DNA from: an uncultured Bacteroidales bacterium
GTDB lineage: Bacteria; Bacteroidota; Bacteroidia; Bacteroidales; VadinHA17
Direction: 5' to 3'
Assembly (NCBI GenBank): GCA_963747625.1
Contig: CAVVGP010000154.1
Coordinates: 1-36,821, forward strand
Length of the DNA: 36,821 nucleotides
Shown here: in pieces, positions 16,205 to 36,821 of the stretch
How the letters are laid out: the number at the start of each line of letters is the position of its first letter
Position numbering within the stretch: the first letter of the stretch is position 1
Position numbers and translations under genes: made by a program
Notes under the pieces: generated by a model
The model's database searches: none
Told to the model about the DNA's origin: nothing
The model's input: only the letters and a program-made list of their open reading frames with translations

Positions 16205-16738
16205 TCATATCCAGTTCTTCCTTACAAAATAAGCCAGTGCATAAGCCGTACCGAAAATGAAGACCATAGTTATAAAGCCTCCCAGTGACAATACCGCCAT
16301 TCCGCTAAGTGCTGACCCACTGGTGCATCCCCTGCCGAGCTCAGCTCCAAAACCAAAAAGAACGCCTCCTGTTAAAGCAAAGAAAAGTCGTCTCTTAACA
16401 GTTATTTTTGGCGAATGTTCAACTTTGAATTTCAGACGTCCGGCAAATGCTCCGGAAAGAAATCCGCCTACAAGAACGCCTGTCATTTCAAAAACAAGCC
16501 AGTTTTTCATCGGGTTTCCAGGATGAGATTCTTTATATTCTTTGACAAAGCCAGACTTTTCAGATGCTGATGGAGCAACAGTTGTCATAGTTGTAACAAT
16601 TGCACTTTTTATAGCTCCGCTGGCCCCCAGACCTCTGCCTGAAACAAAATTAGCTGCAAGTAATACTAAGCCTAACAGTACTCCTCCAATATAAGGATTC
16701 AGGTACTTTGTCTTTTTTGATTCCATTGATGTATTCAT
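16205..16738 (-). CDS. YeeE/YedE sulfur-compound transporter family (half 1)
   Basis: NPYIGGVLLG, GRGLGASG and GFGAELGRGCTSG. Confidence 0.88.
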   Translation of the reverse strand: MNTSMESKKTKYLNPYIGGVLLGLVLLAANFVSGRGLGASGAIKSAIVTTMTTVAPSASEKSGFVKEYKESHPGNPMKNWLVFEMTGVLVGGFLSGAFAGRLKFKVEHSPKITVKRRLFFALTGGVLFGFGAELGRGCTSGSALSGMAVLSLGGFITMVFIFGTAYALAYFVRKNWI

Positions 16739-16836
16739 AATTTTAAAATCTATTCCTATTTCTTAATTTCAATTATCTTAAATCAGGAGTAAGCTATGCA
16801 GGTTATATATACCTCCCAAAGCTTGCCAATAACACG

Positions 16837-17778
16837 TCAATATAGCCACCTGCTTACCTGTCCGGCATAAACTATAATAAACCTCAGCATAAGGCTGCCA
16901 AATATAACCAGGACAGCCGGAACTAATGCCGGTATATGAAATTTTCCCAACTCCATGAATTCCAGAAGTGCAGGAATCAGCATGCCGAGTATAACAACAA
17001 ATATCCAGAATGACATTGTATATGGTCCGCCAAGAAACATCTTTGCTGCTTCAATCTGAACCTGTGTGCTTGCGAGAAAACCCATAAACATATGTATGAT
17101 GAGAAACAGCTCGATACCTATTAACACAAGATCTATTCTTGCAAACTGTTTTCTTTCATCCTTGTCATTGGATAATATTAATGTCGCTGCAGCTCCGGCA
17201 GATAAACCAGATGTAAGGAACAACGGACCAAGGATTGACGTATTCCAAAGCGGACGTGCATTAAAGGCTGACAACAAAATTCCTGTATAGATTCCAAGAA
17301 TAATACCATAAATAAGCATAATCCATGCAATGACCTTTTTGTATTTATTTAAAAAAACCTCAATATCGTATAACAATTTGAATTTCCAGTCCCAGTTAGG
17401 AAAGATGTCTCTGATATGCAAAGCGCACCATATAAATGAAACAGGTGTTATCACAAGTAGAGTCCATGCACCCCATGACATAGGTGACTGTAACCTGATG
17501 TGTGTATAAAGCTGCCAGAAGAACAGTTTATGCCTCAGGTCAACAAAAAGTGCTAGCAGACCAAGAACCAGCATAAAAGGTGCCAAGAAAGGAGTTATGC
17601 GAACTGCTGTTTTATAATCTTTCTCTCTGCCTCTTATATAATATAGTGCAGAGATGCAAAGTATTCCGGCAGCCATCCCTCCCAGAAAGAGATAGAGAGG
17701 TATCTCCCAATGCCAGATATTGAGTTGCGGATCAATGAGATGATTCATTCTACCACTTACAAATATTTCTTCTTCCAT
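16837..17778 (-). CDS. psrC: NrfD/PsrC-type membrane anchor of polysulfide/thiosulfate reductase
   Basis: WHWEIPLYLFLGGMAAG, SPMSWGAW, YTGILLS..RPLWN and LRFIIVYAGQ; about 8 TM segments. Confidence 0.88.
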   Translation of the reverse strand: MEEEIFVSGRMNHLIDPQLNIWHWEIPLYLFLGGMAAGILCISALYYIRGREKDYKTAVRITPFLAPFMLVLGLLALFVDLRHKLFFWQLYTHIRLQSPMSWGAWTLLVITPVSFIWCALHIRDIFPNWDWKFKLLYDIEVFLNKYKKVIAWIMLIYGIILGIYTGILLSAFNARPLWNTSILGPLFLTSGLSAGAAATLILSNDKDERKQFARIDLVLIGIELFLIIHMFMGFLASTQVQIEAAKMFLGGPYTMSFWIFVVILGMLIPALLEFMELGKFHIPALVPAVLVIFGSLMLRFIIVYAGQVSRWLY

Positions 17779-17798
17779 TTTAAATGGTTGTTATTTAA

Positions 17799-18332
17799 TT
17801 AAATCAAAAAATAAAGTTGAGGCTTCGTACCTGCTTCAGGAATGAGTGTTTTTGATTTTCGTTTCTTCAAAACCACTGATACATCACTGTTTGGATCATC
17901 CAGATCTCCGAAATAAATGCATTTTGTCGGGCAGACAGCTGCACAAGCCGGTTTAAGTCCTTCCTTAATTCTGTGTATGCAAAAAGTACATTTATCAACA
18001 TATCCATCCGGATGAGGATAACGTGCATCATATGGACACGAAGCCATACATGCCCCGCAGCCGATGCATTTATTATGATCTACAAGGACAATTCCTCCTT
18101 CCGAAAAATGACTTGCTCCTGTCGGACAGCAACGGACACACGGTGCATTTATACAATGGTTGCATCGTTCCGACCTTATCTCGATCTCAAGCTGGGGGTA
18201 AGTACCATTCATTACCTCAACAACCCAGTCGCGGCAAAAACCATGAGGAACATTATTCTCAGTCTGGCAGGCTACAACACAATCGCTGCAACCTACGCAT
18301 TTTTTGGTATCAACTGCCATTGCATATCTCAT
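17799..18332 (-). CDS. psrB: Four-cluster Fe-S electron transfer subunit (PsrB/PhsB/NrfC)
   Basis: CVGCSDCVVAC, CNHCINAPCVRCCP, CIGCGACMASCPY and KCTFC..CAAVCPT. Confidence 0.9.
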   Translation of the reverse strand: MRYAMAVDTKKCVGCSDCVVACQTENNVPHGFCRDWVVEVMNGTYPQLEIEIRSERCNHCINAPCVRCCPTGASHFSEGGIVLVDHNKCIGCGACMASCPYDARYPHPDGYVDKCTFCIHRIKEGLKPACAAVCPTKCIYFGDLDDPNSDVSVVLKKRKSKTLIPEAGTKPQLYFLI

Positions 18333-20566
18333 AATGCAACCTCCTTATCTGGTTTTTCAGTAACAAATGTCACAAAGTTAGATCTCATTCCTGTACCACC
18401 CATCAATGGGTCGGTCAGAATTTTCGTTATCATCCGTGTATCACTCACTCCTTTTCCATAACATCTCGTCATCTGCTTCTGAGCATGACCAAAGCCATGT
18501 ACCGCATAAACCGAATCCCATCTGATACGTTCAGTTACTCTCACTTTGATTTTAAAATTAGAAATTACTCCATCCTGATTCTTGAGCCATATATATTGAC
18601 CCGTTGTCAGTCCCCACATTTTCGAAACCTTTGGATTTACCCACAGACTGTTCTCATGCAGAAGATCTGTCAGATTCGGATTATTTGAAGTTCTTCCGAA
18701 TGTATGTTGAGGTGTACGACCATAAATCAGACGGTAATATCCATCCGGTGGTTCCTCATGAGGAGTGTATTTTGGAAGAGGATCAAATCCTGCCTGTTCA
18801 AAGCTTTTGGAATACAATTCAATTTTCCCGGAATCGGTTGGGAATACTACATTTTCATTATCGGCATAATACAGATCATCTGCATCCCTTTCTTTGGTCT
18901 TTACGCCGATTCGTTGCATCTCTTCCAGTGAAGAACCACACTGCTTTAATTGCCAGTCGAGCAGATCTTCTATTTTTTCAAACGGGAAATACATTCCGAG
19001 ATCAAGTTTTACAGCAAGCGCCCTTGCAATTTCATATCCCGATCTGGTATTGTACATAGGTTCTGCTGCAGGCATTCTCAATGCAATAGCCGGCTTACGG
19101 TGAGGGCTGATCCTCAGATATTCATATCTTTCAAGATAGGTGCACTCGGGCAGAACCACATCGGCCCACCCCGTAATCTCCATAGGCATAGTGTCGACAG
19201 ACACTATCAGGTCGAGATTCTGTATCGCTTTTATAGTGTTGGCCTGGTCAGGAATAGATGACATCAGGTTTGTTGCGTTGACAAACCATCCCTTTATCAG
19301 TAATCCCGGTTTGTTTTCAGGTATAGAAGCATCGATAAGTACGTTGGAAACGGGAGAACTTGCAATTGGATACTTCCCCGGGAATGCATCTGTCCAGCTT
19401 TTTTTCGGTTGAGGATATTTCGGTATTTTAGCAGATGGCACATCAAATTTCGATGGTCTGTAAAAACCGCCACGTCTTCCCCATGAACCAAGGAGAGCAT
19501 TTAAAATTGCGATAGCACGACTCCTTTGGGTATCATCGCCATACCAGGTAACATGTCGTCCCGGATGAACTATTACAGCAGGAGATGCATTAGCCATTTC
19601 TTTTGCTGTTTTACGTATTTTATCAGGCGGTATTGTCGTAATTGCATAAGCCCATTCAGGGGTAAAATCCTTTACATGTTCTTTCAGCTGGTCAAAACCC
19701 AGAGAATATTTTTCAATGTAATTTTTATCGTACAGATTATTATAAATGATCTCATGTATCCATGCCAGAAGCAATGCAATATCAGTAGACGGTTTAATGG
19801 CAAGCCAGTACTTTGATTTACCGGCAGCTGTTGAAAACCTTGGATCCACTGTAATAATTGTGACCCCTTTATCAATAGCATCCAACATTTCCTGTATCTG
19901 ACCGTTATGCATGTTCTCGCCGATATGAGATCCTATGAGAACCAGACATTTTGTATCACGGATGTCTGTCACTTCAGGAGAATAAACTTCTTCACCGAAA
20001 GTCGCAAAAAATGCTTCATCCCTTGGTCCTTTACACTGGGCATATGCCGGTTCTGCTATATTTGATGAACCAAATGCCTGAAACAGATTAGTATAATAAG
20101 AACTCCCGGAACCATGGGTGAGTAATGCCATACTTTCAGGACCATATTTTGAAGATATTTCCTTCATTTTTGATGCAACCAGGTCCAGTGCCTCATCCCA
20201 TGTTGCCTCACGAAATACCTGCTTTCCACGTTCTTTGACTCTGATAAGTGGCGTCTTTAGTCTGTCTTCATCATAGTACATCCCTACACCACCTGTTCCA
20301 CGGGGACACAGACGTCCGTTAGAATGCTGATCTTCATCATTTCCTATTATTTTCCAGATTTTACCCTCGGAAGTTTTATAAACCCAGCCGGCACATTTCC
20401 AGAAGCATACCTCGCAGTAAGTAGGTGTCCGCTTGAGATTGACCTTGAGTTTTTTTGCTTCATCCGGAGAGGAAAATAATTTGACAGCACCGGCTGCTCC
20501 TCTGGTCATTGCCAGGACACCGGCGCTCATTGCCGAAATTTTAATAAAATCTCTCCTGCTAGTCAT
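18329..20566 (-). CDS. psrA: Tat-exported Mo/W-bis-PGD oxidoreductase, polysulfide/thiosulfate reductase catalytic subunit type
   Basis: SRRDFIK twin-arginine motif; CEVCFWKC...LCPRG Fe-S motif; candidate metal-ligand Cys in YAQCKGPR; WADVVLPECTYLER; PsrB/PsrC genes directly downstream. Confidence 0.82.
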   Translation of the reverse strand: MTSRRDFIKISAMSAGVLAMTRGAAGAVKLFSSPDEAKKLKVNLKRTPTYCEVCFWKCAGWVYKTSEGKIWKIIGNDEDQHSNGRLCPRGTGGVGMYYDEDRLKTPLIRVKERGKQVFREATWDEALDLVASKMKEISSKYGPESMALLTHGSGSSYYTNLFQAFGSSNIAEPAYAQCKGPRDEAFFATFGEEVYSPEVTDIRDTKCLVLIGSHIGENMHNGQIQEMLDAIDKGVTIITVDPRFSTAAGKSKYWLAIKPSTDIALLLAWIHEIIYNNLYDKNYIEKYSLGFDQLKEHVKDFTPEWAYAITTIPPDKIRKTAKEMANASPAVIVHPGRHVTWYGDDTQRSRAIAILNALLGSWGRRGGFYRPSKFDVPSAKIPKYPQPKKSWTDAFPGKYPIASSPVSNVLIDASIPENKPGLLIKGWFVNATNLMSSIPDQANTIKAIQNLDLIVSVDTMPMEITGWADVVLPECTYLERYEYLRISPHRKPAIALRMPAAEPMYNTRSGYEIARALAVKLDLGMYFPFEKIEDLLDWQLKQCGSSLEEMQRIGVKTKERDADDLYYADNENVVFPTDSGKIELYSKSFEQAGFDPLPKYTPHEEPPDGYYRLIYGRTPQHTFGRTSNNPNLTDLLHENSLWVNPKVSKMWGLTTGQYIWLKNQDGVISNFKIKVRVTERIRWDSVYAVHGFGHAQKQMTRCYGKGVSDTRMITKILTDPLMGGTGMRSNFVTFVTEKPDKEVAL

Positions 20567-24130: not shown

Positions 24131-25298
24131 CTATAATCCTGGCAATCTTGGGATTTTCCCCAACTTTGTAAACTTTGAATATATCCCCCACCCTTTTTTG
24201 AGCCAATGACCTATTATCGGCAAAGGAATTATAATTGATCTTTTACTGTTGCGATAAATAAAAGCGGCACCATCGCCAGTATCCATTACACATAGTATAT
24301 TCAAATGTTCCTGATAAGTCTTTCTTTTATCGCTGCCTTTTTCAATTTCGTATATGTTATAAGCTGCATCTCTTCCCATAAGCTCTGCAATATGGCCTTG
24401 CTTGGCAATCCATTCATCTCCTTCGATTGCAGCAATATCACCAACTGCAAAAACATTGGGGAATCCCGGAACCTGACATGAATTTTCTATTATTATAAAT
24501 CCTGCTTCGGATAATGGCAAGTCTGATTTCCTGAGAACAGCATGGCCAGCTCCTGCTGCAATAAACATTATTAAATCGGAATCAAGTTTTGAATTATCCT
24601 CGAAAATTATAGCATCGGCAACGAAACTCTTTGATCTTTTTACCAAAGTGCTTCCTGATGTTGTACCTTGAAAACATTTTATCAATCATTGCAAGAGCAC
24701 CTTCACCCATTTTAGCTCCCGGTTCCTCCATGGGTGCGAAAAAAGTCAACTCAAAGTTTTCTCTTATTTTTTTTGTTTTCAGGTAATGGTGAATATTAAA
24801 AATCAACTCGAATGCCGGTCCGCCCCTGACAGCTGATTTGTCTTTAGGATTTCCACCAAAACCTACTGTTATCTTTCCACTTTTCTTCTTAACCAGATCA
24901 TCAATCCTTTCACGTATATCAAGTGCCATTTCGGGTTTGGCACATATTGATAATGTATGACCAATACCATTATGCTGCATTTTTTCATATCCGAAGGCAA
25001 CAACCAGAAAATCATAGTCTAATGTATTATTTTCGCATACTACTTTGTTTTCAGCAGCATGAATTTCAGTCACCTTATCAACAATCAGCTTAAATGGATA
25101 TTTATTCTGAATATCGACAAGTCGGATTTTTACATCTTCAAACTCCTTAATATGAACAGGAATCCATATAGATATTGGAAATAAATACAGAAAATCACGG
25201 TCAGAAACGAGAGTAACATCAAAAATATTTTTTTTCTGCAATTCAATTGCTGTTTGTATTCCGGCAAATCCTCCGCCGAGAATTAAGACTTTCTTCAT
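24131..25298 (-). CDS. sqr: Sulfide:quinone oxidoreductase, type VI (SqrF)-like, one frameshift near 24620-24680
   Basis: GGGFAG, LSICAK, GFGGNPKDKSAVRGGPAFE, SCQVPG..VGD, WIAKQGHIAE, LCVMD and amphipathic C-terminal HWLKKGWGIY. This is the motif set recalled for SqrF proteins. Confidence 0.78.
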
Positions 25299-25326
25299 AT
25301 GGCAATAACTCAGTGTGGATGGAATA

Positions 25327-26291
25327 CTAAATAGAAAGTGATTGTTTTTGTTTTATTTTCAATTCATTCAGGTAATTTGATGAAGCAAGTGCTGCCACTG
25401 TTCCATCACCTATAGCAGTTGTAACCTGTCGATATCTTTTTGCAACGCAATCTCCTGCAGCATATACTCCTTCAATATTTGTCGCCATATCTTCTTTTAC
25501 CAAAATCTCACCCCACTCATTCATATTAACTTTCCCTCTTAAAAATTCAGTATTTGGCAGGTAACCAATAAAAATAAATGCTCCATCGGTGCTGAAACTT
25601 TGAATTGCACCGGTTTCTCATATTTTTTATAATAACACTTTCAAGATTTTCATTACCATGAAAACCTGCAATTACCGATTCCATCCTGAAACTAATCTTC
25701 GGATTATTTTTTGCTTCAGCAACCGCATGTTCAAACGCCTGAAAATGATCAAACTGATGTATTATTGTCACTTTACTGGCATATTTTGTCAATGAGACTG
25801 ACTCCTCCAAAGCTGAATTACCTCCGCCTACAACTACAATTTCTTTATCAGTAAAGAAATCGCCATCGCAGGTTGCGCAGTAGGAAATTCCTTTCCCTTT
25901 GAAAATACTTTCACCAGGCACGCCTAACGTACGGGGCCTTCCCCCGGGGAGTGAGATTATGCTGCCAGAAGTATATTTGTTTCCATCCGAAAGAACTATA
26001 CTTTTTACTCTCGCTTTCGAGATCGCAGTTTAAGAATTGAAGTATTCGATTTAATTTGACATCCGAAAGCTTTAGCCTGCTTTTTCATGATGCCGACCAG
26101 CTGGTAGCCGCTTATGCTCTCCACCCCGGGATAGTTTGCAATCTCGTGGGTAAGAATCATCTGACCGCCAACTGTGCCTTCATCAACGATTAAGTGTTTT
26201 TAACCTGGCTCGCGACAGGTAAATTCCTGCTGTAAGTCCCGCAGGTCCTGCCCCAACAACAATTGCATCCCAATGCTTTATCTATGTTCAT
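25327..26291 (-). CDS. trxB: Thioredoxin-disulfide reductase, frameshifted
   Basis: [38 protein letters not shown] and [14 protein letters not shown]. Confidence 0.9.
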
Positions 26292-26295
26292 ATTT

Positions 26296-26652
26296 TCAGG
26301 CTTTTACGGTAGCAGAAAACTCTTTGTCAAGAATTGATTTTACCTGTGCTTTAGTTTGAATACTTGAAGTGGCCTTGACGACTTTACCATCTTTATAATA
26401 GATTGTAAATGGAATTCCCATAAAACCACTGACTTCAGGTAGTGAACGAATTACATGTGACTCCGGATTATCAAATTCCATATCGAAGAATTTTACATGT
26501 TTATATTCATCTTCCAGGTCTTCAGCAATGCCATAAACGGGAATACACATTGGTCCCATCCGACCACAGATTACCATTACATTTTCATTTTCACTGATCG
26601 CTTTTTTATGATCAGCAGCAGATTCAAGGTGTTTTAAGTTTGTGTACAACAT
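26296..26652 (-). CDS. Thioredoxin-fold protein with a CX6C (CGRMGPMC) motif
   Basis: VMVICGRMGPMCIPVY; cis-Pro-like GIPFT; YKDGKVV; directly upstream of trxB. Confidence 0.8.
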   Translation of the reverse strand: MLYTNLKHLESAADHKKAISENENVMVICGRMGPMCIPVYGIAEDLEDEYKHVKFFDMEFDNPESHVIRSLPEVSGFMGIPFTIYYKDGKVVKATSSIQTKAQVKSILDKEFSATVKA

Positions 26653-26963
26653 GATTTTTAAATTTTAAATTAACAGCACAAAAATACTTTGTAATTACTC
26701 CCTGATAAAGTAAATGAGACTTCGTTGAGACAATTTACAGGTTGATTCAGAACAACTTTTTCATTGACTTAAGTGAATTCCATAAAATATACCAGTCATC
26801 TCTATCATCATATTGTTGAATTGTTGAATAAAACAAACTACAAACCTGGAAACTGAACATAAAAAAAGTTGAGATATATCAGTTTAAAAATTGGAATCAG
26901 TAAGTTTGATATAGATAATGATGATTTGCTTTTGCATAGCTTTGTGAAAAAAATCTGGTAAGC

Positions 26964-27389
26964 ATGGCAAAAAAAGAGACTGTTACTACAAAATGGCTGA
27001 ATAACATGGCATTTGAATCAGAAGTAAACGGCCATAAGATAATACTTGATTCAGAAAATGCAGTTGGAGGAGAAAATCGCGGACCCAGGCCTAAAATTCT
27101 TATGCTGACAGCATTAGGCGGATGTACGGGGATGGATGTAATATCAATCCTTAAAAAGATGCGTGTTGAGGTTGAAAAATTCAATGTAACGGTTGAAGGG
27201 GACATGACTGAAGAATTCCCCAGGCATTATTCTAAAATGCACGTTATCTACGAATTTACGGGAAAGGATCTGCCAATGGATAAACTGCAAAAAGCTGTCA
27301 CTCTATCAGAAGAAAGGTATTGTGGAGTTAGTGCTGTCTATAAAAAAGCAATTGAAATGACATCCGAAATAAAAATAATTGAAAGTTAA
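26964..27389 (+). CDS. OsmC/YhfA family protein
   Basis: GPRPK..ALGGCTGMDV and ERYCGV. Confidence 0.9.
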   Translation: MAKKETVTTKWLNNMAFESEVNGHKIILDSENAVGGENRGPRPKILMLTALGGCTGMDVISILKKMRVEVEKFNVTVEGDMTEEFPRHYSKMHVIYEFTGKDLPMDKLQKAVTLSEERYCGVSAVYKKAIEMTSEIKIIES

Positions 27390-27394
27390 ATATT

Positions 27395-27859
27395 ATGGAG
27401 AACACCGGTTTCAGTACATTGTATAACGATAATGACAAGAAAATACTAAAGCTTGCTGAAGATTCACTAAACCCTCATACCGACAGAATAAATGAGATTA
27501 TAAATTATGCAAAAGAGGCTGAAATAAATATAATAGGTATAGCAAATTGTATATCATTTAATAAAGAAGCTGCTCAATTGGAGGAGATTCTTGCAGAAAA
27601 AGGGTTTCAGGTTGAAAAAGTCAACTGCAAATATGGAAAAGTGCCATTTAATGATCTGGTACCAGGTTATAGAGGAGTAACCTGTAATCCTGCCGGTCAG
27701 GCAAAATATCTTGAAGAAAAAGGAACAGGTCTTAATATTATGATGGGACTTTGTCTTGGTCACGATATGATTTTCAATTCCAAATCAAAAGCTCCCGTTA
27801 CGCCATTAGTTGTCAAAGACAGGAAATTGAACCATAATACACTTGATGCTTTAAGATAA
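27395..27859 (+). CDS. DUF1847 metal-binding protein
   Basis: IGIANC, NCKYG, CNPAGQA, GLCLGHD and VVKDR. Confidence 0.85.
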   Translation: MENTGFSTLYNDNDKKILKLAEDSLNPHTDRINEIINYAKEAEINIIGIANCISFNKEAAQLEEILAEKGFQVEKVNCKYGKVPFNDLVPGYRGVTCNPAGQAKYLEEKGTGLNIMMGLCLGHDMIFNSKSKAPVTPLVVKDRKLNHNTLDALR

Positions 27860-27866
27860 AGTCCGG

Positions 27867-28547
27867 TTAGCCGTTAGCACTGATAAGCAACAACGATTTC
27901 TTTTTAAGGATTTCAATCTTTTTACCGGAAGTCTGATGATACCGTCATTTTCAAATTCAGTCAATACCCGACTAATGCTTTCCCTGCTTGAATCAACCAG
28001 ATTACCTAAATCTTCCTGGGTCAGAGGGAATTTTAAATAGTCGGAGTTATAAATTCTTTCAGACAACTCAATCAAAACATCTGCAATTTTTCCTCTCATT
28101 TGTTTTTGTGTCCGATTTGCACACCTGTTAAACACTTCAAGTTCATTCCTGCATAATTCCAGCATAATTTCATAAGAGAAATCATGATTTGCTTTAAGCA
28201 ATATCGAAATGCATTGATATCAATAAAACAGACCTCCGCAGGCCTCAATAACCGTCACGGAGTATTGATTTATTTTATCTCCAAAAGTTGTTGGTAATGC
28301 CAAGATAAGATGGGAGCCTTTACGATACGTACAATTTGCTCATGATAAGGGCCTGCAATATGTACCTTGGCCAGTCCGCTTCTCAGATAAGCCACATTGG
28401 TGGAAAATGTTCCCTGTCTTATTAAAGAGTCTCCTTTTCGAAATTTCACCAAAGCACAATTGAATGAGAGTCTTCTCTATCTCATCGGCACTTAATTTAA
28501 GAGCAGCTTCTGGATTTAATTGCACATAATTTACAATTGTTTTTCAT
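27867..28547 (-). CDS. Crp/Fnr family transcriptional regulator, frameshifted
   Basis: Start MKNNCKLC; cNMP-fold FRKGDSLIRQG..YLRSGLAKV; HTH LTQEDLGNLVDSSRESISRVL. Confidence 0.88.
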
Positions 28548-28566
28548 AGTGCAAATATAATAAAAA

Positions 28567-28584
28567 TGTGAGCTATGAATCACA
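28567..28584. promoter_or_regulatory. CRP-like inverted repeat TGTGA-N8-TCACA
   Basis: tgtga gctatgaa tcaca in the divergent crp/dsrE intergenic region. Confidence 0.4.
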
Positions 28585-28676
28585 AAATAGTTTAAGCAGC
28601 TTCACAACTGCTTTAGCGAATCTGGTACAAGTATTGCGTTTCTTTGTGAATTAATTAACAATAAAAATTTATCACT

Positions 28677-29107
28677 ATGGAACCAAAAAAAATGTGCTTA
28701 GGTCTATTTTCAGGAAGCGTTGATAAACTGACTGCTGCAGGTATTATCCTCAGTGGTGCAGTAGCGACTTGATATGAAAGTTGATATATATGTTTTATTA
28801 CAGGGCGCCACGTGCTTTCAGGAAAGATGTCGGTGATAATCCCGATAAACTTCAGATGGCTGAGAATCCTGCATTGAAAGAAGAATTTTTACAGTCATTG
28901 AAAAACCTTAAAGTTAAAACATGGGTTGAATTCTTTAAAGAAGCTAAGGAAATATATCTGATGTCAAAATTCACATCTGTGGCCTTGCAGGAAAATATGG
29001 GGAGCTGAAAAACTGGAAGACTTTATCGATATCGCCGATGATATATGTGGTATCAGCGCATATATAACTGCGGCAGAGGAAGCCGATGTCAATCTGTTCA
29101 TTTATAA
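28677..29107 (+). CDS. DsrE/DsrF/DrsH-like sulfur relay protein, frameshifted
   Basis: Reconstructed MEPKKMCLGLFSGSVDKLTAAGIILSGA...DMKVDIYVLLQGA...WVEFFKEAKE..VKIHICGLA...DDICGISAYITAAEEADVNLFI. The 3' end is approximate. Confidence 0.75.
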
Positions 29108-29145
29108 TATGAAATATAATTCCGTGAAGTGATCTTTTTAAAATA

Positions 29146-29734
29146 ATGACATTTTAGTTAGATATTTAAAAAGAAGAAGAAATAAGTTACAGCTAAATGA
29201 AATTCAGGTAAACAGGTTAAGCCTTAAAGGGAAAGATCACCTACTTGAAAATTCAAGAAAAGATCAATTCTCAATAGCAATAGTATCAGGCGACATGGAT
29301 AAAGTACTGGCGGCAATGGTAATTTCACTGGCAGCTGCTGCCATGGACACTCAGGGTAAAACTGTTTTTCTCATTCTGGTCTCTATCGGCTCTCAGAGAT
29401 AAAAAAAAGAAACAAAGGAAAAAACTTTATATCTAAAATGTTCGGAATGATGTTGCCACATGGTAAAAGACAATTTGAAATTATCAAAGATGAACATGAT
29501 AGGCATGGGTCCATTAATGATTAAATATTTAATGAAAAACAAGGGGTCATATCTCTTGAGAGATGTTCAGACAGGCGGCAGAATTAGGCATTGAAATTAC
29601 AGTTTGTGAGATGTCGATGAACCTTATGGGTTTCAGGAAAGAAGAGATGATCGATTATCCGAATTTAAGGTATGCAGGAGCAGCAACTTTTGTTGCTGAT
29701 GCGGGTGAAAGCAGCGATACAATTGTTTATTTAG
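29146..29734 (+). CDS. DsrE2/DrsH-like protein, heavily frameshifted; start uncertain
   Basis: FSIAIVSGDMDKVLAAMVISLAAAAM..LFFSFW..SKMFGMMLP..LSKMNMIGMG..ITVCEMSMNLMG..AGAATF. Confidence 0.78.
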
Positions 29735-29775
29735 ATATTTATTTCAAACAAAATTTACATATTTAAATTTTAAAA

Positions 29776-30027
29776 ATGACACAAGAAGAATTAATAAGCC
29801 TACAGGTCACAAAAGCAGTCGATGCAAGAGGTACTGCATGTCCGGGTCCGTTACTTGAAGCTAAAAAAGCAATTGGTACAATTAAATCGGGCGATATTAT
29901 GGAAGTTTTGTCTGCCGATGAAGGAACTAAAGTTGATATTCCAAAATGGTGTGCAAAACAAGGTCATGAATATCTTGGCACAATTGAGGGTAGCGGCTAT
30001 TTCAGAATTTTCATGAAGAAACATTAA
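29776..30027 (+). CDS. tusA: TusA family sulfur carrier
   Basis: DARGTACPGPLL (CPxP) and DIPKWC..GHE. Confidence 0.92.
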   Translation: MTQEELISLQVTKAVDARGTACPGPLLEAKKAIGTIKSGDIMEVLSADEGTKVDIPKWCAKQGHEYLGTIEGSGYFRIFMKKH

Positions 30028-30036
30028 ATGTAGAAT

Positions 30037-30444
30037 ATGGCTGATATCGGCAAAAAAACCGCCAAGATCCTGGTATTCTCTACTGAAAAAATTTCTGATC
30101 CGGCTATTGATATGGCAGGATTACTTAAATTGCATTACCCTCCTACGGTTTATACAATTTCAATTCCCTGTTCCAGTGGTGTAAAAACAAGATGGATTTT
30201 ACATGCTTTTGAAAAAGGATTTGACGGGGTTTTTATTGCTGCTGATGGAAGTGATTGTCCTTATGGCGAATCATGCACTGAAAAAACCGGAAAGATTATA
30301 AGTCGTACTCAGGAACAGATGAAAAAACTTGATATTGAACCGGCCCGTCTCCGGATGGCTGCAATTTGCTCGGTATGCAGTGAGTCATTTGTAAAACAGA
30401 TGAAAAGCTTTAATGAATATTTACTAAAAAATTCAAACATTTAA
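30037..30444 (+). CDS. mvhD: MvhD/FlpD-like [2Fe-2S] protein
   Basis: IPCSSGV..ILHAFEKGFDGVFIAADGSDCPY..C..RLRMAAICSVC. Confidence 0.8.
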   Translation: MADIGKKTAKILVFSTEKISDPAIDMAGLLKLHYPPTVYTISIPCSSGVKTRWILHAFEKGFDGVFIAADGSDCPYGESCTEKTGKIISRTQEQMKKLDIEPARLRMAAICSVCSESFVKQMKSFNEYLLKNSNI

Positions 30445-30446
30445 TT

Positions 30447-31747
30447 ATGCATGGGAAAATAATAAATGCCTCTTTTGATGCACTTGTTATTGGTGGAGGA
30501 ATTGCGGGTGGAGAAGCAGCATTAAATTTAGCCAATAACGGATTTAAGGTATTAATAGTTGAAAAAGATCTTTCCATTGGTGGTAAGATGATTTTGCTAA
30601 GCAAAGTATTCCCTACTCTCGATTGTTCTGCATGCATAACCACACCAAAGGTATCAGAGATCTCAAGGCACCCCGGAATTACAATTTTTACAGGTAGTGA
30701 AGTAAAATCTGTCAGCAGGAAATCTGAAATCATCTTCGAAGCCAGGGTAATTAAAACACCCGGTATATAATAGATGAAGATTGTACTGGCTGTCAGTTAT
30801 GCGAACAGGCTTGTCCGGTTCTTGTTCATGACCAGTTCCAGTATAACCTCGTTGGACGTAAAGCAGCATTTATTCCTTTCAGCATTGCAAGTCCTAGAGT
30901 GGCTGCTATTGATATTGAGAACTGTACCTTGTGCGGAGCTTGTGAAAAAGTTTGTCCGACAAAATGCATCGACTTTACCCAGGAAGTAGAAGAATATCAT
31001 ATTGAGGTCAATACGGTTATCATTGCCACAGGATTTAAACTTTTCGATCCGCTGATGATCCCTCGCTATGGGTATGGAACTCTATAAAAATATAATTACT
31101 TCCATGCAAATGGAAAGGCAACTTGCCCCTACCCGGCCATTTAATACAATTCTCAGACCCGGGACGGAAAAGTTCCCGACAGAATTGCTTACGTTCTTTG
31201 CACCGGTTCAAGAGATATTACGATAGGTAATCCTATATGCTCACAGATATGCTGTATGTATTCAATTAAACAGGCACAGTTACTGATGGGAGCTCTGCCT
31301 ATGGCCGATGTTACTATTTACTACATTAACATCAGGTCATTTGGCAAGGGATTTGAAGAATTTTATGACCAGGCAAAAGGTATGGGAGTAAACTTTGTTA
31401 AAGGTAAAATCGGGAAAATCACTGAGAATGAGAACGGCAACCTGAAATTAAGATACGAAGATATTAATGAGAATGTTGTAAAGGAAAATGAGCACGACCT
31501 TGTGGTACTTTCGGTCGGTGTACTTCCAAATACCGACAGTAAAGCTTTTTTCCCTGATGAGAACCTGAAACTCGATCCTTTCAATTTTGTGGACCAGTCT
31601 GATCCTTTGGCAAGTCCTTCAAAAACAAGCATTGAAGGAGTTTTTGTTGCAGGTACAGCTACCGGTCCAATGGATATTCCTGACTCAATTCTTTCAGCAG
31701 GAGCTTCATCAGCGGAAGCAATAAGTTATCTAAACCGCAAATTATGA
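30447..31747 (+). CDS. hdrA: HdrA-like flavoprotein 1 (core plus inserted ferredoxin), frameshifted
   Basis: GGGIAG, VFPTLDCSACITTPK, CTGCQLCEQACP, CTLCGACEKVCP, CTGSRD..CSQICCMYSIKQ and GVFVAGTATGPMDIP. Confidence 0.88.
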
Positions 31748-33671
31748 ACAAAAAAATTGGAGTATATATTTGCCATTGTGGTGGTAATATATCAGATTAT
31801 GTTGATGTTGAAAAGGTAAGAAAATCCATTGAGGTAGAAGACGGCGTTTTCCTTACAAAAACTACCATGTTTGCCTGCGGAGATGCCAATCAGAAAGAGA
31901 TGGTCGATGATATTAAAAGAAATGGCCTCAATGGCGTGGTAGTTGCTTCATGTTCTCCAAAATTACACCTGTTAACTTTCAGGGCTGTGACAGAGAGAGC
32001 CGGACTGAACAAATACAATTATGTCCATGCAAATATCAGGGAACAGGCTTCATGGGCACATTCCGACGATAAATCCGGAGCAACTGAAACAGCAATTCAC
32101 CTGGTAAAGGCTGCAATAGCAAAAGTACGCCTCTCTGAACCTCTTTACCCTATTATAATAAATTCAAAAAAAGCTGCCGCCGTAATCGGCGGAGGTATAG
32201 CAGGAATGAGAGCAGCTATAGAATTAGCTGACATGGGATGCCCTGTGACACTCATTGAAAGAGAACATTTTATTGGGGGAAGAGTCGCTCAGTGGGACGT
32301 CCTGTTTACCACTAACGAAACCGGCAAAGAAGTGGTGACCAAACTATACAATGAAGTTATAAAACATGATAACATAAGATTGCTCACAGGTGCGGAGGTG
32401 ATATCCAGTTCAGGAAGTATTGGCGATTTCAAAATGAAAATTAAGGTTACGCCCCGGTACATTAAAGAAAAATGTGATCAGGGACATCTGTTAAAAGCTA
32501 TTGCTATATGCCCTGTAGATGTACCTGATGATTTCAACTTCAATATTACCATCAGAAAAGCCATTTATCATAATTTTCCAAGTGAATATCCACAAACACC
32601 CGTTATCGATATAAAAAACTGTACCCGCTGCGGAGAATGCGAAAAGATATGCCCAAGCGTTGATTTTTCACAACAGGAAGAGATAATTGAAATAAACGTA
32701 GGCACAGTACTGATGGCAACCGGATTCGATTCCTATACTCCCGCTACCGGAGAATTTGGATATAACCAGTTAGAAAATGTAATAACCCTTCCACAATTCA
32801 AAAGAATTATTGACCTGAATGACAAAAAAATAGTATACAGAGGAAAAGAAATAAGGAATATTGCATACATCTACTGCGTCGGAAGCCGCCAGATTGAAGG
32901 TGACAATAAATATTGCTCCCGATATTGCTGCACTTCAGTTATTTATGCAGCAATGCAGGCAAAGAAAAAATTTAATGGAATTAATAATTTCCATTTTACC
33001 CGGGGGATACGGACATATGGTAAACAGGAGGTATTGTACGCGGAATCACTTAAAGGAGGCGATATTTTCCTTCAATCCTATGAAGATGCCCCTCCTGTGG
33101 TTGAACAAAGTAATGATAAAATAAATATCAGAATAAATGATATTCTGACCGCCAAAAAAGAAATGTCTGTGGAGGCTGACCTTGTTGTACTCGTCACAGG
33201 AATGGTCCCCAGGGCTGATAATTCGGTGGCTTCGTTATTTAAACTTCCTAAAGGACGCGACAAGTTTTTTAATGAGATCCAATGAAGCTGCGTCCTGTAG
33301 AAACAGTAATTGACGGGATAACTATTTGTGGGGCATGCCAGGGCCCTAAAAATATAATGGAATCGGTCAATTCAGCTTTATCTGCCGCTACAAAATCTTA
33401 TTCATATGTAAGCAAAGGTGAACTCGAACTTGAACCCATTATTGCAAAGATTGAAAAGGAACTGTGTGTATGGTGTGGAGCTTGCGCAGAAGCATGCCCC
33501 TTCGATGCCATAAAAATGGTAAAGGATGAGAAAAAGGATGTTGCGGCGATTAATCTTTCGGTTTGCAAAGGATGTGGTATGTGCTTGCCTGTGTGCCCTG
33601 CCAATGCTATAAACTTGACTGCCTACTCAGACAAGGAGATAGAAAGTATGATTGATGCACTGGCGGGATGA
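31744..33671 (+). CDS. hdrA: HdrA/QmoB-like flavoprotein 2 (~640 aa), one frameshift near 33283
   Basis: GVYICHCGGNI, SCSPKLH, ANIREQ, GGGIAG, CTRCGECEKIC, CVGSR..YCSRYCC, KLRPVET, CVWCGACAEACP and CKGCGMCLPVCP. Confidence 0.88.
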
Positions 33672-33815
33672 CCCCTGCCGCTGTGCGGCCTTCCCCCTAA
33701 ACGGGGACTAATTCGGTGTCCATGATGAATTTATTGAAATTCTGAGAATGAGCCCCACTTCTTAGCCTTCGCGAAGCCGCTACGGCAAAGCAAGTTAGGG
33801 GGGTGGGCAAAAGGG
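33672..33815. repeat. GC-rich hairpin (REP-like) element inside the operon
   Basis: gccgc-tgt-gcggc; cccc-ctaaac-gggg; gccccact...gtgggc enclosing gccttcgcgaagccgctacggcaaagc. Confidence 0.55.
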
Positions 33816-33849
33816 CAGAGACAAAAGTTTATTTTAAAAAACTGAACAT

Positions 33850-34128
33850 ATGGAAATAGAAAAAGGTAAAACATATAAATACCTGAGAGAGAAAAGAGAA
33901 GTTTCTCAAGCTGCAAAAGATAACCTGAAACAATTCAGCAGAATTAAGAAATTAATTCTTGATGCTCTTCAGGAAAGTGATTTAACAATTGATCAAATAG
34001 CACAAAAACTCAATATGCCAAAAGAGGAGGTCGTTTATTACCTTATGTCGCTTGTAAAATATGGTTATGTTCTAACTGGCGAAGTTGATGATATGGATGC
34101 ATATTTTTCTTATAAATTAAAAAAATAA
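33850..34128 (+). CDS. Small winged-helix protein
   Basis: ILDALQESDLTIDQIAQKLNMPKEEVVYYLMSLVKYGYV; TAATG overlap with the next gene. Confidence 0.75.
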   Translation: MEIEKGKTYKYLREKREVSQAAKDNLKQFSRIKKLILDALQESDLTIDQIAQKLNMPKEEVVYYLMSLVKYGYVLTGEVDDMDAYFSYKLKK

Positions 34129-35174
34129 TGGCTGCGATTAATCCTGAATTCGGAAAAGAATTAAAGAAATATGGAGCATTCGATTTTAACGCATGCTATA
34201 ACTGTGGAAACTGTACTGCCGTCTGCTCATTATCAACAGAAGAAGATTCCTTCCCGAGAGAAATGGTACGGTTCAGTGTATTAGGAATGGAAGATGATAT
34301 CAGATCTTCGCTCAAGCCATGGTTATGCTATTATTGCGGCGAATGCAGTACACATTGCCCTCAGGAAGCAAACCCTGGAGAATTAATGATGTCGCTTAGA
34401 AGATGGCTTACATCGGAATATGACTGGACAAAACTATCGGGTTTATTATACAAATCGCTTCCACTTACCATAACAGGTTTTATAATTGCAGCAATAAGCG
34501 TCTTAATATTCGGTGCTTTGGAAAATTTTAATCTGCAATCCATAATGCACATCGGACATGTTTTTGAAATAATAGCTATTGCTGCTGTTTTTGGATTTAT
34601 CCTGCTTCCAAATATTATTAGAATGTGGTGGCTGATTATCGTGAAACCCAAAATTAAGGTTCCTGTTATTAAATATCTTACCGGATTCGGCGACTTAATT
34701 GTGCATATGTTTACACAAAAAAGATCGTTAGGCTGCGATGATAATCAGTTAAGATGGTTTGAACACTTTATTATCGTAATCGGGTATCTCGGACTTTTAT
34801 CTACCACCGTTTTCCTGGACTGGTTTTCCAATGACAGCCTTTTCGTTATAGTGCTTGGATATATAATGAGCATAGTAATATTTATTGTAACTATTGATTT
34901 TATGTGGGACCGTGTTAAAAAGCAGAAAGAGATGAGCAAATTTTCACAGCCCTCCGACTGGATGTTTGTTGTATGGTTGTTTTTAATGGGACTGACTGCT
35001 TTCATTGTCCGCATTTTCATTGATATCGGCCTGATCGAAAAAAATATATGGTTGTACCTCATCCACCTGATAATTCTTGTTCAATGGGCATTAATAATTG
35101 TACCATTCGGTAAATGGACTCACTTTCTGTATCGCTCATTTGCTATGTATTTTGCTAAAATAAAAGCCAGTTAG
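34128..35174 (+). CDS. QmoC-like protein (HdrC-type 2x[4Fe-4S] + HdrE-type membrane domain)
   Basis: CYNCGNCTAVC and WLCYYCGECSTHCP, then about 6 TM helices with His residues (WFEHF, YLIHL, PFGKWTHFLYR). Confidence 0.82.
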   Translation: MAAINPEFGKELKKYGAFDFNACYNCGNCTAVCSLSTEEDSFPREMVRFSVLGMEDDIRSSLKPWLCYYCGECSTHCPQEANPGELMMSLRRWLTSEYDWTKLSGLLYKSLPLTITGFIIAAISVLIFGALENFNLQSIMHIGHVFEIIAIAAVFGFILLPNIIRMWWLIIVKPKIKVPVIKYLTGFGDLIVHMFTQKRSLGCDDNQLRWFEHFIIVIGYLGLLSTTVFLDWFSNDSLFVIVLGYIMSIVIFIVTIDFMWDRVKKQKEMSKFSQPSDWMFVVWLFLMGLTAFIVRIFIDIGLIEKNIWLYLIHLIILVQWALIIVPFGKWTHFLYRSFAMYFAKIKAS

Positions 35175-35243
35175 CAGGCCATTATCAAATTCCAGTTTCA
35201 TCTGCCCGCAGCAAAATATAAAAAGTTAAAAATCTGAAATATA

Positions 35244-35291
35244 TTTGGATAATGAACATATGTTCATTACATTTGTATCGAACATATGCTC
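35244..35291 (+). promoter_or_regulatory. Promoter (-33 TTTG, -7 TACATTTG) overlapped by a perfect 20-bp palindromic operator, plus a second degenerate copy
   Basis: TTTG at 35244-35247; TAATGAACATATGTTCATTA at 35250-35269; TACATTTG at 35268-35275; GAACATATGCTC at 35280-35291. Confidence 0.75.
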
Positions 35292-35882
35292 TTAATTATG
35301 TCGCCTCGCCCTTCACGCTTAAGAAAAATCAGCAACCCTCCTGTTATTTCAGGGTTTAAGCCATATGGAAATAAGAATCAAGGCAGGAAAGTTGAAGCCG
35401 TGTTTCTTCACTTTGAAGAATATGAAGCATTGCGTCTTTGCGATTACAAAATGTTAAATCATAATCAGGCCTCTGCTATTATGAATGTTTCAAGACCTAC
35501 GCTGACAAGAATTTACGCGAGGGCAAGACAAAAAATTGCGGAGGCCCTTGTAAAAGGAAGTCAGATCAGCATTGAAGGTGGAAAAATATATTTTGACAGT
35601 GAATGGTTTTCCTGTTCAAAATGCGGTTGTTATTTCAATAATCCTGAAAAACAAATCGAAATAAAAGAGTGCCCGCTGTGTAAAAGCACAAGCTTTTCAA
35701 GTTTTGCGGAAAAGAATATTGAAGAGGAAGATGCAGTTAACCGGTTCAATGAAACATGCCTCTGCCCTGCATGTGGTTTTGAACAACCGCAAAAGTCCGG
35801 ATATCCTTGTAAAGAAGAAATTTGCCCGTTATGCGGTACAAAAATGGTAAAATTGGGAATTCCACATAACCGAAATTTCTGA
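35286..35882 (+). CDS. DUF134 (UPF0251) HTH protein with C-terminal CxxC ribbons (probable start 35298, MSPRP)
   Basis: PRP..R, EEYEALRLCDY and MNVSRPTLTRIYARARQKIAEALV..IEGG; four CxxC pairs. Confidence 0.87.
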   Translation: MLLIMSPRPSRLRKISNPPVISGFKPYGNKNQGRKVEAVFLHFEEYEALRLCDYKMLNHNQASAIMNVSRPTLTRIYARARQKIAEALVKGSQISIEGGKIYFDSEWFSCSKCGCYFNNPEKQIEIKECPLCKSTSFSSFAEKNIEEEDAVNRFNETCLCPACGFEQPQKSGYPCKEEICPLCGTKMVKLGIPHNRNF

Positions 35883-35891
35883 TCTGACATT

Positions 35892-36209
35892 ATGAAAGCA
35901 GCAATCACTAGTACCGGTAACAGTCTGGAAAGCAAATTAGATGAACGTTTTGGGCGTTGTGGATTCTTTGTAATTTACGATACAGAAACAAAAGGGATGG
36001 AATTCATTCCCAACCCGAATAAAAATGCACAGGAAAGTGCAGGCCCTCTTTCAGTACAACTCATCGCATCGCGGAAGGTTCAGAAAATAATATCAGGGGA
36101 ATTCGGGATTAAAATTAAATCATTGCTCGACAGCCTTAAAATCCAGATGATTGTATATAAGGAACCTGAAAAGACAATAAGGGAGATTATCAATATGTTA
36201 GACAATTAA
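35892..36209 (+). CDS. NifB/NifX (dinitrogenase FeMo-co biosynthesis domain) family protein
   Basis: LDERFGRCGFFVIYD..NPN..AG..IISGEFG. Confidence 0.87.
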   Translation: MKAAITSTGNSLESKLDERFGRCGFFVIYDTETKGMEFIPNPNKNAQESAGPLSVQLIASRKVQKIISGEFGIKIKSLLDSLKIQMIVYKEPEKTIREIINMLDN

Positions 36210-36221
36210 ACTTAACAGATA

Positions 36222-36404
36222 ATGGCACAGATGAATGGAACAGGACCTGAAGGGAAAGGCTCCAAAACAGGTCGCGGACTTGGAAAATGCAAAAAAAATA
36301 CTCCGGAGGAACTGATTTCCAGGCTTGGAAAAGGACAGGGGAAACGCCGTAATGTCGGAGGAGGAACAGGAAAAGGGAAACGATTAAAAAGCAGTGAAGT
36401 TTGA
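36222..36404 (+). CDS. DUF5320-like small Gly/Arg-rich protein
   Basis: GTGPEGKGSKTGRGLGKC. Confidence 0.75.
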   Translation: MAQMNGTGPEGKGSKTGRGLGKCKKNTPEELISRLGKGQGKRRNVGGGTGKGKRLKSSEV

Positions 36405-36534
36405 TCTAATTATTTTAGGGAAATGTAACGCTTTTAAAAAACCTTTAAAAATTCTGAGTGAACTGATAAATAATCTTTTGAATGATTCTCAGATTGCCTG
36501 AATAAATTATTTTAATCATTAATCTTTTTATTAA

Positions 36535-36821
36535 ATGGTATCAGATCACCGTTGTTTTTTTTGTTTCACAAGGGCATTTGAAAAACTGCTTGAGAAAGCA
36601 GATATTTCAGTTGAAGCAAAGAATTCTTTCACCCTTGAGATGGTCAATATTTATCGGAATAAATGGAATGAGCTTATGTCACCTGAATTTTCCCGGGAAC
36701 TACATATAATTCTGAGAAACTATACCAATAATCCTGATCCATACCGGCAGGAAAAGAAGTATAATAATGATCAGGCTCTCGCCATGCTTCCAGGCTTAGA
36801 AAAAGAGGTAAAGCTATCAGC
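36535..36821 (+). CDS. DUF89/ARMT1-like damage-control phosphatase, 3' partial (missing from the ORF track)
   Basis: MVSDHRCFFCFTRAFEKLL...SPEFSRELH...NPDPYRQEKKYNNDQAL, open to the window end. Confidence 0.78.
   Translation, partial: MVSDHRCFFCFTRAFEKLLEKADISVEAKNSFTLEMVNIYRNKWNELMSPEFSRELHIILRNYTNNPDPYRQEKKYNNDQALAMLPGLEKEVKLS

Follow-up and report, generated by a model that had tools for sequence, protein, structure and literature searches.

Complexes built on HdrA are the usual machinery of flavin-based electron bifurcation, and no link in dissimilatory sulfur metabolism is understood less well than Qmo. We analyse here a run of eight genes at 28677-35174 (+ strand) of contig C154 from an uncultured Bacteroidales bacterium (36,821 nucleotides; this whole stretch is referred to as the window), in which a Qmo-like, HdrA-type redox core is encoded together with the sulfur carriers TusA and DsrE2. 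Canonical QmoABC (type I), present in sulfate reducers and green sulfur bacteria with AprAB as its partner, likewise combines two HdrA-related flavoproteins, an HdrC-like/membrane subunit (QmoC) and an MvhD-type module. In canonical QmoABC the latter forms the tail of QmoB, whereas the run encodes MvhD by a separate gene, has a whole HdrA as its B subunit and adds a winged-helix protein, and its genetic linkage is to tusA/dsrE2 instead of aprBA. The HdrABC-MvhAGD complex of methanogens (PDB code 5odc) provides a second point of comparison, with an HdrA that matches one of the flavoproteins end-to-end, an MvhD subunit, and an HdrC that resembles the N-terminus of the QmoC-like protein. It differs in that a membrane haem/quinone arm here takes the place of HdrB, a second, shorter HdrA that of one protomer, and DsrE2/TusA that of the hydrogenase. 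As HdrB does not form part of the complex, no heterodisulfide site is expected.

A 'type II' class of Qmo, with proteins closer to HdrA and occurring in organisms without Dsr and Apr, is described in part of PMC10504309, and the class is also mentioned in part of PMC8477390. The A and B subunits encoded in the run similarly lie nearer to HdrA than canonical QmoA/QmoB do, as judged by scores against the HdrA2 model NF040770, a likeness of model scores and published description rather than of comparison with V. moutnovskia or A. degensii sequences. TusA, DsrE2, the winged helix and Mvh-swapped forms are not mentioned in the type II passages of PMC10504309, while Bacteroidales type II sequences may already be listed in the supplementary Qmo trees of that study. 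The sHdr system (TusA, DsrE3, LbpA; outlined in part of PMC11094781) shares an Hdr-type complex genetically tied to TusA and DsrE-family carriers. In contrast to sHdr as outlined there, the present locus has no hdrC1B1-hyp-hdrC2B2 arrangement and no lipoate-binding gene, its HdrA proteins are long and iron-sulfur (FeS) rich, its carriers are DsrE2B-like rather than DsrE3, and a quinone-linked membrane subunit is present. Finally, archaeal DsrEFH type II / YTD clusters (yeeE-tusA-dsrE-like), in the portion of PMC13293266 that deals with them, are syntenic with dsrMK or qmoAB and thus share DsrE-type carriers, TusA and YeeE beside a Qmo-type module. Those clusters belong to Dsr-bearing organisms and encode DsrEFH-type proteins, whereas the carriers here belong to PF13686 and Dsr was found in none of 301 genomes sampled from the order.

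An earlier note, made from the letters of the window, had placed eight co-directional, tightly packed genes in this region, and all of them were found at those positions on the + strand. Four bases are shared by the end of hdrA1 and the start of hdrA2, and a single base by the end of the winged-helix gene and the start of qmoC. The features of the run and of the region directly upstream are the following (aa, amino acids):

27866-28547, - strand: divergent Crp/Fnr-family regulator; the orthologue at L014:4066-4743 matches PF13545 HTH_Crp_2 (E 7.6e-17) and PF00027 cNMP_binding
28567-28584, no strand: CRP-type inverted repeat in the crp-dsrE2a spacer, TGTGA-N8-TCACA
28677-29102, + strand: DsrE2a, 141 aa; PF13686 DrsE_2, 35 bits against a cut-off of 25 (intact orthologue)
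29147-29766 (ends approximate), + strand: DsrE2b, about 190 aa; PF13686, 153 bits, E 7.9e-45 (intact orthologue)
29776-30027, + strand: TusA, 83 aa; PF01206, E 1.1e-22, 80 bits against a cut-off of 28.6
30037-30444, + strand: MvhD-type FeS electron-transfer subunit, 135 aa; PF02662 FlpD, E 7.3e-29
30447-31747, + strand: HdrA1, a QmoA-like HdrA, 433 aa; NF040770, 481 bits over model positions 136-561
31744-33671, + strand: HdrA2, a full-length HdrA, 642 aa; 5odc_A, E 6.7e-140; NF040770, 579.6 bits over model positions 1-640
33850-34128, + strand: winged-helix protein, 92 aa; weak Pfam matches to winged helix-turn-helix families (HTH_5, E 7e-5)
34128-35174, + strand: QmoC-like membrane anchor, 348 aa; NF038018 qmoC, 144.7 bits against a cut-off of 300

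One genome per species was scanned with the QmoC-like protein, and the loci of the best 80 of 539 confirmed relatives were analysed; 79 of these 80 carry Bacteroidota titles, the remaining one being an 'uncultured bacterium'. Gene linkage was counted over those 53 loci in which 6.2 kb or more of sequence precedes qmoC. The genes for TusA, MvhD, HdrA1, HdrA2 and the winged-helix protein were each present in 53/53 loci, and a DsrE2 gene in 52/53 (DsrE2a in 24, DsrE2b in 40). The same operon was found in all four examined loci with a divergent QmoC. The gene run is therefore supported as one conserved unit, and the linkage of tusA/dsrE to the hdrA pair that the earlier note had proposed for a synteny check proved to be conserved. 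Among 301 genomes sampled evenly across the order Bacteroidales, 66 were counted as operon carriers, 51 with a full-length HdrA1 orthologue and 15 with a longer variant of that protein. QmoC-like clusters also occur in several phyla in the ESM Atlas, a resource that gives no gene context.

Several of the genes are interrupted in this copy. Relative to the intact operon of a same-genus locus (L014), about 12 frame changes fall within the eight genes and hit four of them: DsrE2a has 4, DsrE2b at least 4, HdrA1 3 (near 30761, 31081 and 31163) and HdrA2 a single one (33282). The TusA, MvhD, winged-helix and QmoC-like genes are intact in frame. Outside the run, the Crp gene has at least 4 breaks and a DUF134 gene 1. 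Public contigs, at a depth of only 2-5 and from four runs of one study that are possibly the window's own source, span some of these positions. Two of them (X1 record 5 and X4 record 28) show no other letters and 1 gap over 33039-33403, at the HdrA2 break, and two (X3 record 18 and X4 record 24) show 1-2 other letters and 1 gap over 31091-31321 in HdrA1; an extra T behind 30760, at the HdrA1 break, is present in one public contig that is about 95% alike. Because otherwise identical public contigs bear one extra letter at two breaks, the frame breaks are most likely assembly indel errors rather than real pseudogenes. The number of frame changes within eight genes would fit a decaying cluster in this one genome, with real breaks, but we consider this very improbable: breaks are frequent along the whole window, neighbouring genes included, in a pattern typical of uncorrected indel errors, the source genome (3.48 Mb in 262 contigs) has a completeness score of only 61%, and the sequence between breaks remains 79-100% identical to intact orthologues.

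The earlier note had described the complex as an orphan with respect to Apr and Dsr, and this was borne out. Five operon carriers were checked closely: this genome, G016, G018 (91% complete), G020 and G025 (99% complete). None of the five has aprA (TIGR02061) or dsrA over cut-off, nor DsrC, and asrC was over cut-off in 0/5 carriers of a partly different set (G000, G016, G018, G025 and G130). Across the 301 genomes dsrA was absent throughout, while aprA was over cut-off in 16 (17 at E <= 1e-30). An aprA gene occurs in 13/66 carriers compared with 4/235 non-carriers (odds ratio 14, kin not being independent), and is missing from 53/66 carriers. In the aprA-positive genomes examined, aprB-aprA has a separate qmoABC set next to it, with a qmoA of 406-422 aa and a qmoB of 703-725 aa, as seen in the canonical aprB-aprA-qmoA-qmoB-qmoC operons L120 (G130), L121 (G107) and L123 (G200) of Bacteroidales.

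The proteins encoded in the run also fall outside the canonical Qmo group, which the earlier note had proposed to examine with trees. The QmoC-like protein aligns with the NF038018 qmoC model over its full length (residues 7-342 against model positions 4-360), yet remains far below the cut-off. Other TusA- and Mvh-linked forms score 151-200 bits, whereas the canonical aprBA-linked QmoC of G130 scores 388.9 bits, which validates the model as a test of membership in this order. HdrA1 and HdrA2 in turn score higher against NF040770 than do the canonical QmoA (356.4 bits) and QmoB (423.2 bits) of the same order; the QmoB of G130 (703 aa) reaches position 774 of that model. Identity between the aprBA-linked and TusA-linked proteins is only 23-33%, and the QmoC tree places the aprBA-linked clade apart from the TusA-/Mvh-linked sequences with 100/100 support. 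In G130, a one-contig genome, both systems are present, 3.5 Mb apart. Since aprBA has its own qmoABC, the proteins share so little identity and form separate clades, and both systems coexist in G130, the TusA-linked complex is not the partner of APS (adenosine 5'-phosphosulfate) reductase. An ordinary QmoABC that serves an APS reductase encoded elsewhere in the genome would account for the Qmo-like architecture and for the label 'QmoC' that the Joint Genome Institute (JGI) applies to many orthologues, but given the lack of aprA in all five carriers (this genome and the nearly complete G025 included), the low qmoC score and the separate aprBA-adjacent qmoABC, this explanation is largely refuted and we assign it next to no probability. 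The 'Qmo' label of the earlier note thus holds for the architecture, with two HdrA-like flavoproteins and an HdrC-like membrane subunit, and does not hold at the level of the QmoC score or of MvhD, which is encoded by a separate gene.

MvhD aligns with the tail (positions 645-769) of the fused archaeal HdrA2 model NF040770, and five of its cysteines are invariant in 46 orthologues. HdrA1 consists only of a flavin adenine dinucleotide (FAD) domain with an inserted 2x[4Fe-4S] ferredoxin domain, with conserved cysteines, and matches PDB 9sfi_A (E 6e-111). HdrA2 contains an N-terminal FeS domain, the FAD domain and a C-terminal 2x[4Fe-4S] ferredoxin domain, without an MvhD tail, and residues 4-626 align with residues 5-635 of the methanogen HdrA (5odc_A). 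The inserted ferredoxin-like domain of HdrA2 is dispensable, as it is missing in a sub-clade of the operon (L054, L062, L063, L080, L090, L097, L103, L108 and L084). Split HdrA2 matches in 12 loci had raised the possibility of selenocysteine, which was rejected: they trace back to loss of the inserted domain, to frameshifts or to stretches of N, and not to an in-frame TGA. The QmoC-like protein is composed of an HdrC-like 2x[4Fe-4S] domain (residues 4-92 match 7bkb_C) and a multi-helix membrane domain. Six histidines are invariant (H141, H144, H193, H213, H313 and H332), which would presumably fit two haems, assigned as in QmoC and HdrE.

The winged-helix protein has a predicted structure (predicted local distance difference test score of 85) with an ArsR/SmtB-like fold, albeit a weak resemblance (template modelling score of about 0.57). 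Variant operons encode it as a C-terminal fusion to HdrA2, in which residues 662-741 match residues 13-92 of the separate protein (34% identity, E 3e-13). On account of this fusion it is probably a subunit of the complex, DNA binding being the less likely role. A role as a persulfide sensor was considered and rejected, the protein being devoid of cysteine.

Comparison with paralogous operons suggests that the partner of this core is exchangeable. In L018 (G008), L124 (G200) and L125 (G048), genes for hdrA-qmoC-hdrA' occur with mvhD-mvhG-mvhA, in varying order and without tusA or dsrE. These putatively encode a hydrogen:menaquinone/ferredoxin complex. The TusA-linked proteins have no closer paralogues than the HdrA and QmoC of these operons, identity being 37-40% between HdrA1 and Mvh-linked HdrA (compared with 30-33% between HdrA1 and the order's canonical QmoA) and up to 57% for QmoC. 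Two Mvh-linked QmoC sequences nest within a TusA-linked clade with 98/99 support, and it follows that the membrane subunit has been exchanged between the two kinds of operon. The core is thus shared by both, its variable part being either the hydrogenase or DsrE2/TusA (with the winged helix). A further form is found in 15/301 genomes, in which an NAD(P)H module (PF14691 + PF07992, GltD/NfnB-like) is inserted in HdrA1, extending it to about 915 aa. In this variant HdrA2 also bears the winged helix at its C-terminus, and the three loci examined, L126, L127 and L128 (G278, G254 and G098), all retain dsrE2b, tusA and mvhD. Among the five carriers checked closely only G016 has a full [NiFe] hydrogenase, and none lies inside the operon; PF00374 gave no match in G018 and G025 and a 69-residue partial match in G000.

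The carrier proteins retain the residues on which sulfur transfer would depend. C22, P23, G24 and P25 of TusA are invariant in 43 orthologues, preserving the Cys-Pro-x-Pro site, although the protein does not reach the cut-off of the E. coli TusA equivalog NF001423 (45.1 vs 78 bits). DsrE2a has an invariant Cys100 (28 orthologues). DsrE2b appears as a soluble, DsrE2B-type protein with an N-terminal helical extension and a single invariant cysteine, C153 (40 orthologues); it scores 66.6 bits against the NF047629 DsrE2 equivalog (cut-off 210), compared with 153 bits against PF13686. The closest solved structures are PDB 3pnx (E 4e-25) and 2qs7 (E 7e-13), the second of which is named DsrE2B in part of PMC11094781. 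An extra PF02635 DsrE gene lies directly upstream of the operon in 12/88 loci. A more extensive same-strand extension upstream, confirmed at the level of open reading frames in G262, G130, G078 and G147, adds a second tusA, a 404-aa YeeE-family transporter and 2-4 rhodanese-domain genes. By coordinates only, the same transporter type lies 5-6 kb upstream in 7 further carriers, which brings the extension to 11/66 carriers. It is not present in this window.

We tentatively favour, at somewhat less than even odds, a menaquinone-linked HdrA-type complex for which sulfane sulfur on TusA/DsrE2 would be the third substrate. What the data establish is the gene content, its conservation, the family placement of the proteins, the exchange of modules and the upstream extensions related to sulfur import. 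Quinone coupling, bifurcation or confurcation, persulfide reduction, the electron paths, their direction and carrier-bound sulfur as substrate are all features that we infer from the sequences. The proposed five-subunit HdrA-type ('type II-like') Qmo complex would consist of MvhD, HdrA1, HdrA2, the winged helix and the QmoC-like anchor. By homology, the N-terminal domain of the QmoC-like protein would sit on HdrA where HdrC does, and the membrane portion of the protein would stand in for HdrB, for which reason the high-potential arm is most likely menaquinone; the QmoC-like subunit would link the menaquinone pool to the HdrA1/HdrA2 flavins. The ferredoxin domains of HdrA2 could form a low-potential arm to a soluble carrier, with NAD(P)H entering via the GltD-like module of HdrA1 in the variant. 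MvhD would then lead to a third partner, which in the paralogous operons would be the MvhAG hydrogenase and here the persulfide sulfane sulfur of TusA/DsrE2, because the remaining invariant genes are just those for TusA, DsrE2 and the winged helix. Confurcation has reportedly been proposed for Qmo before. In the likeliest net reaction, sulfane sulfur that was imported or derived from thiosulfate would be converted to sulfide by menaquinol and a low-potential donor, reduction being the likelier direction in fermentative anaerobes. It could serve as an electron sink or as respiration in anaerobic, sulfide-exposed Bacteroidales.

A number of observations weigh against carrier-bound sulfur as the substrate. 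The main weakness is that no subunit contains a recognised sulfur-chemistry site; no HdrB/CCG domain (PF02754) is encoded within 28677-35174. The Cys-x-x-Cys beside the HdrA1 FAD fold is also found in methanogen HdrA and is therefore not peculiar to this complex. YeeE genes overall are no commoner in carriers (33/66) than in non-carriers (111/235), and G025, despite being nearly complete, has a minimal operon and no YeeE. An hdrCB-like pair could be invoked as the missing catalytic subunit, but it was not counted in the unit as it is present in only 19/80 flanks and often on the opposite strand. No cultured carrier was identified. The three-chain complex prediction that was run (HdrA1 + MvhD + TusA, with TusA as the partner) scored 0.15 against a mark of 0.32 and is not evidence either way. 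The NAD(P)H module of the variant, combined with the quinone and ferredoxin arms, would already suffice for a bifurcating enzyme with three substrates and no need of sulfur. This is the basis of an alternative in which the complex acts as a ferredoxin:menaquinone or NAD(P)H:menaquinone oxidoreductase, with bifurcation of the Fix/Etf-quinone kind as a possibility, and TusA/DsrE2 act as helpers that supply FeS-cluster sulfur or that gate or regulate the complex, and not as substrates. The Mvh-linked paralogues, which show the core working with a conventional donor, and the lack of a sulfur-reactive catalytic domain in the operon are in line with such an enzyme. We nevertheless judge it unlikely, while taking it seriously: the carriers are kept in 52-53 of 53 loci and in all three NAD(P)H-variant loci, which fits general assembly helpers poorly, and the yeeE-rhodanese extensions and extra DsrE genes point to a flow of sulfur rather than to maturation.

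If sulfur is indeed the substrate, the direction of the reaction could be reversed, with sulfane sulfur of TusA/DsrE2 feeding menaquinone and ferredoxin or NAD+. In the roughly one fifth of carriers with aprBA-qmoABC, it would contribute to the conversion of thiosulfate or sulfur into sulfate and sulfide without Dsr. The enrichment of aprA among carriers argues for this oxidative or disproportionating direction, as do the co-occurrence of the extended tusA-yeeE-rhodanese operon with aprBA-qmoABC in G130 and G262 and the position of MvhD on the donor side in the Mvh-linked paralogues. The lack of dsrA throughout the sampled order also speaks for it, as another sulfane-converting system would then be needed. 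It is nonetheless improbable, given that aprA is missing from most carriers, this genome and its near relatives among them, that sopT-type ATP sulfurylase was found in 0/5 genomes (4 of them aprA-positive), and that the locus has no lipoate-binding protein gene, GcvH-family genes being found only on other contigs. Moreover, the formation of sulfite from sulfane sulfur requires oxygen-atom chemistry, for which there is no candidate site here. Quite improbable, too, is a role in repair or detoxification, in which electrons from quinone or ferredoxin would clear protein persulfides or disulfides under thiol, persulfide or oxidative stress. It would explain the thioredoxin reductase, thioredoxin, OsmC and DUF1847 neighbours in the window and the FNR-like cysteine set kept by the regulator, and fur (14), ferritin-like (16-17) and peroxiredoxin (15-16) genes found downstream on the same strand in the 80 loci fit a stress role as well as weighing against sulfane-sulfur reduction. 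Such neighbours accompany only about one fifth of loci and are not among the invariant genes. A repair enzyme of this size, anchored in the membrane and rich in FeS clusters, would be unusual, and the extensions with yeeE and rhodanese genes suggest that a substrate is taken up from outside. At its boldest, the sulfane sulfur of TusA/DsrE2 would be a true bifurcation/confurcation substrate of the HdrA flavin, either in sulfide/persulfide oxidation that reduces menaquinone and ferredoxin/NAD+ or, reversed and combined with aprBA-qmoABC, in Dsr-independent thiosulfate/sulfur disproportionation by fermentative Bacteroidales. We regard this as a long shot; either version would give a very common order of anaerobes a sulfur-based energy metabolism of a new kind.

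Expression of the operon is predicted to be under the control of the divergent Crp/Fnr-type regulator, which would bind a TGTGA-N6-TCACA box. The Crp-type gene is present in 47/50 loci with at least 7.2 kb upstream, and its cysteines at alignment columns 17, 20, 117 and 153 are invariant in 33/33 orthologues, a four-cysteine layout that we take to be FNR-like. The exact box was found in 41/51 related crp-dsrE2 spacers, compared with 3/10,200 shuffles, at a median distance of 116 bp from the first gene. The same half-sites occur in this window, separated by 8 letters in place of the N6 of relatives; the two surplus letters may reflect a further indel error. Between hdrA2 and the winged-helix gene, the spacer (33672-33849) contains G+C-rich hairpin-like repeats, is unconserved, and ranges from about 25 to 180 bp among relatives. 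Rfam gave no match in 26000-36821.

According to the earlier note, no aprAB, dsrAB, hdrB, hydrogenase or lipoate-binding gene is adjacent to the run. This is correct for the immediate flanks; the window does contain an hdrB cluster at about 7.4-12.3 kb, and the contig ends near qmoC, 1.6 kb beyond the gene and inside a DUF89 gene. The nearest CCG genes in the window lie at 7.4-8.0 kb and about 10.6-11.6 kb. They mark a second Hdr-like cluster (about 7400-12300, - strand) with hdrC (240-253 aa), hdrB (349-353 aa), a short HdrA of 340 aa, similar in length to sHdrA of sulfur oxidisers, and a 634-aa HdrED-like protein composed of a membrane domain, 2x[4Fe-4S] and two CCG domains; the copy in G016 includes a 114-aa ferredoxin-like gene. 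This cluster is intact at L114:3450-8502 and L029:6143-11208, is located 20 kb from the TusA-linked operon here, and is unlinked to it in G018.

A psrABC-like operon of the Psr/Phs type (14687-20566, - strand) lies 8-14 kb upstream of the run and, with its yeeE and rhodanese genes, counts in favour of the sulfur reading; the region is collinear with G016:

18329-20566, - strand: molybdopterin oxidoreductase, 745 aa
17799-18332, - strand: Fer4_11 FeS subunit
16837-17778, - strand: NrfD membrane subunit
16208-16726 and 15480-16067, - strand: two YeeE half-genes, after the NrfD gene
14687-15319, - strand: rhodanese-domain gene, after the YeeE half-genes

Between this operon and the Crp gene, a redox/stress set at 24624-27859 comprises a broken NDH-2/SQR-like flavoprotein, a broken thioredoxin reductase, thioredoxin (26296-26652, - strand), OsmC (26964-27389) and DUF1847 (27395-27859). 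A 485-aa SQR-like flavoprotein is found beside the Crp gene in G016, G018 and two other loci. Downstream of the run, 35260-36821 holds a set of DUF134, NifX-like (PF02579) and DUF89 genes, which in relatives (L027 and L014) continues with hdrC/hdrB-like, CGGC-domain, MinD-like FeS ATPase and Mrp genes. Contig C213 contains the remainder of a DUF89 gene with CGGC and Mrp genes, and no hdrCB match.

In the open-access main texts we found no existing characterisation of the operon or of its Mvh and NAD(P)H sister forms. The interpretation put forward there stands as far as a conserved unit, orphan with respect to Apr/Dsr and outside canonical Qmo, is concerned; it needs narrowing in that the class of Qmo is not wholly unseen, type II Qmo without Dsr and Apr having already been noted. 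The operon points to an undescribed form of intracellular sulfur handling, with a Qmo-like core that has no Apr/Dsr partner and is joined to sulfur carriers in about a fifth of the sampled genomes of a widespread anaerobic order. The natural swap of modules, with a hydrogenase or an NAD(P)H module, offers a direct handle on the partner of the MvhD arm. If persulfide is the substrate, the complex would provide a cytoplasmic, quinone-linked route of sulfur reduction, oxidation or disproportionation in sediments, peat and digesters, and 'QmoC' matches in metagenomes, now scored as markers of sulfate reduction, would have to be read differently.

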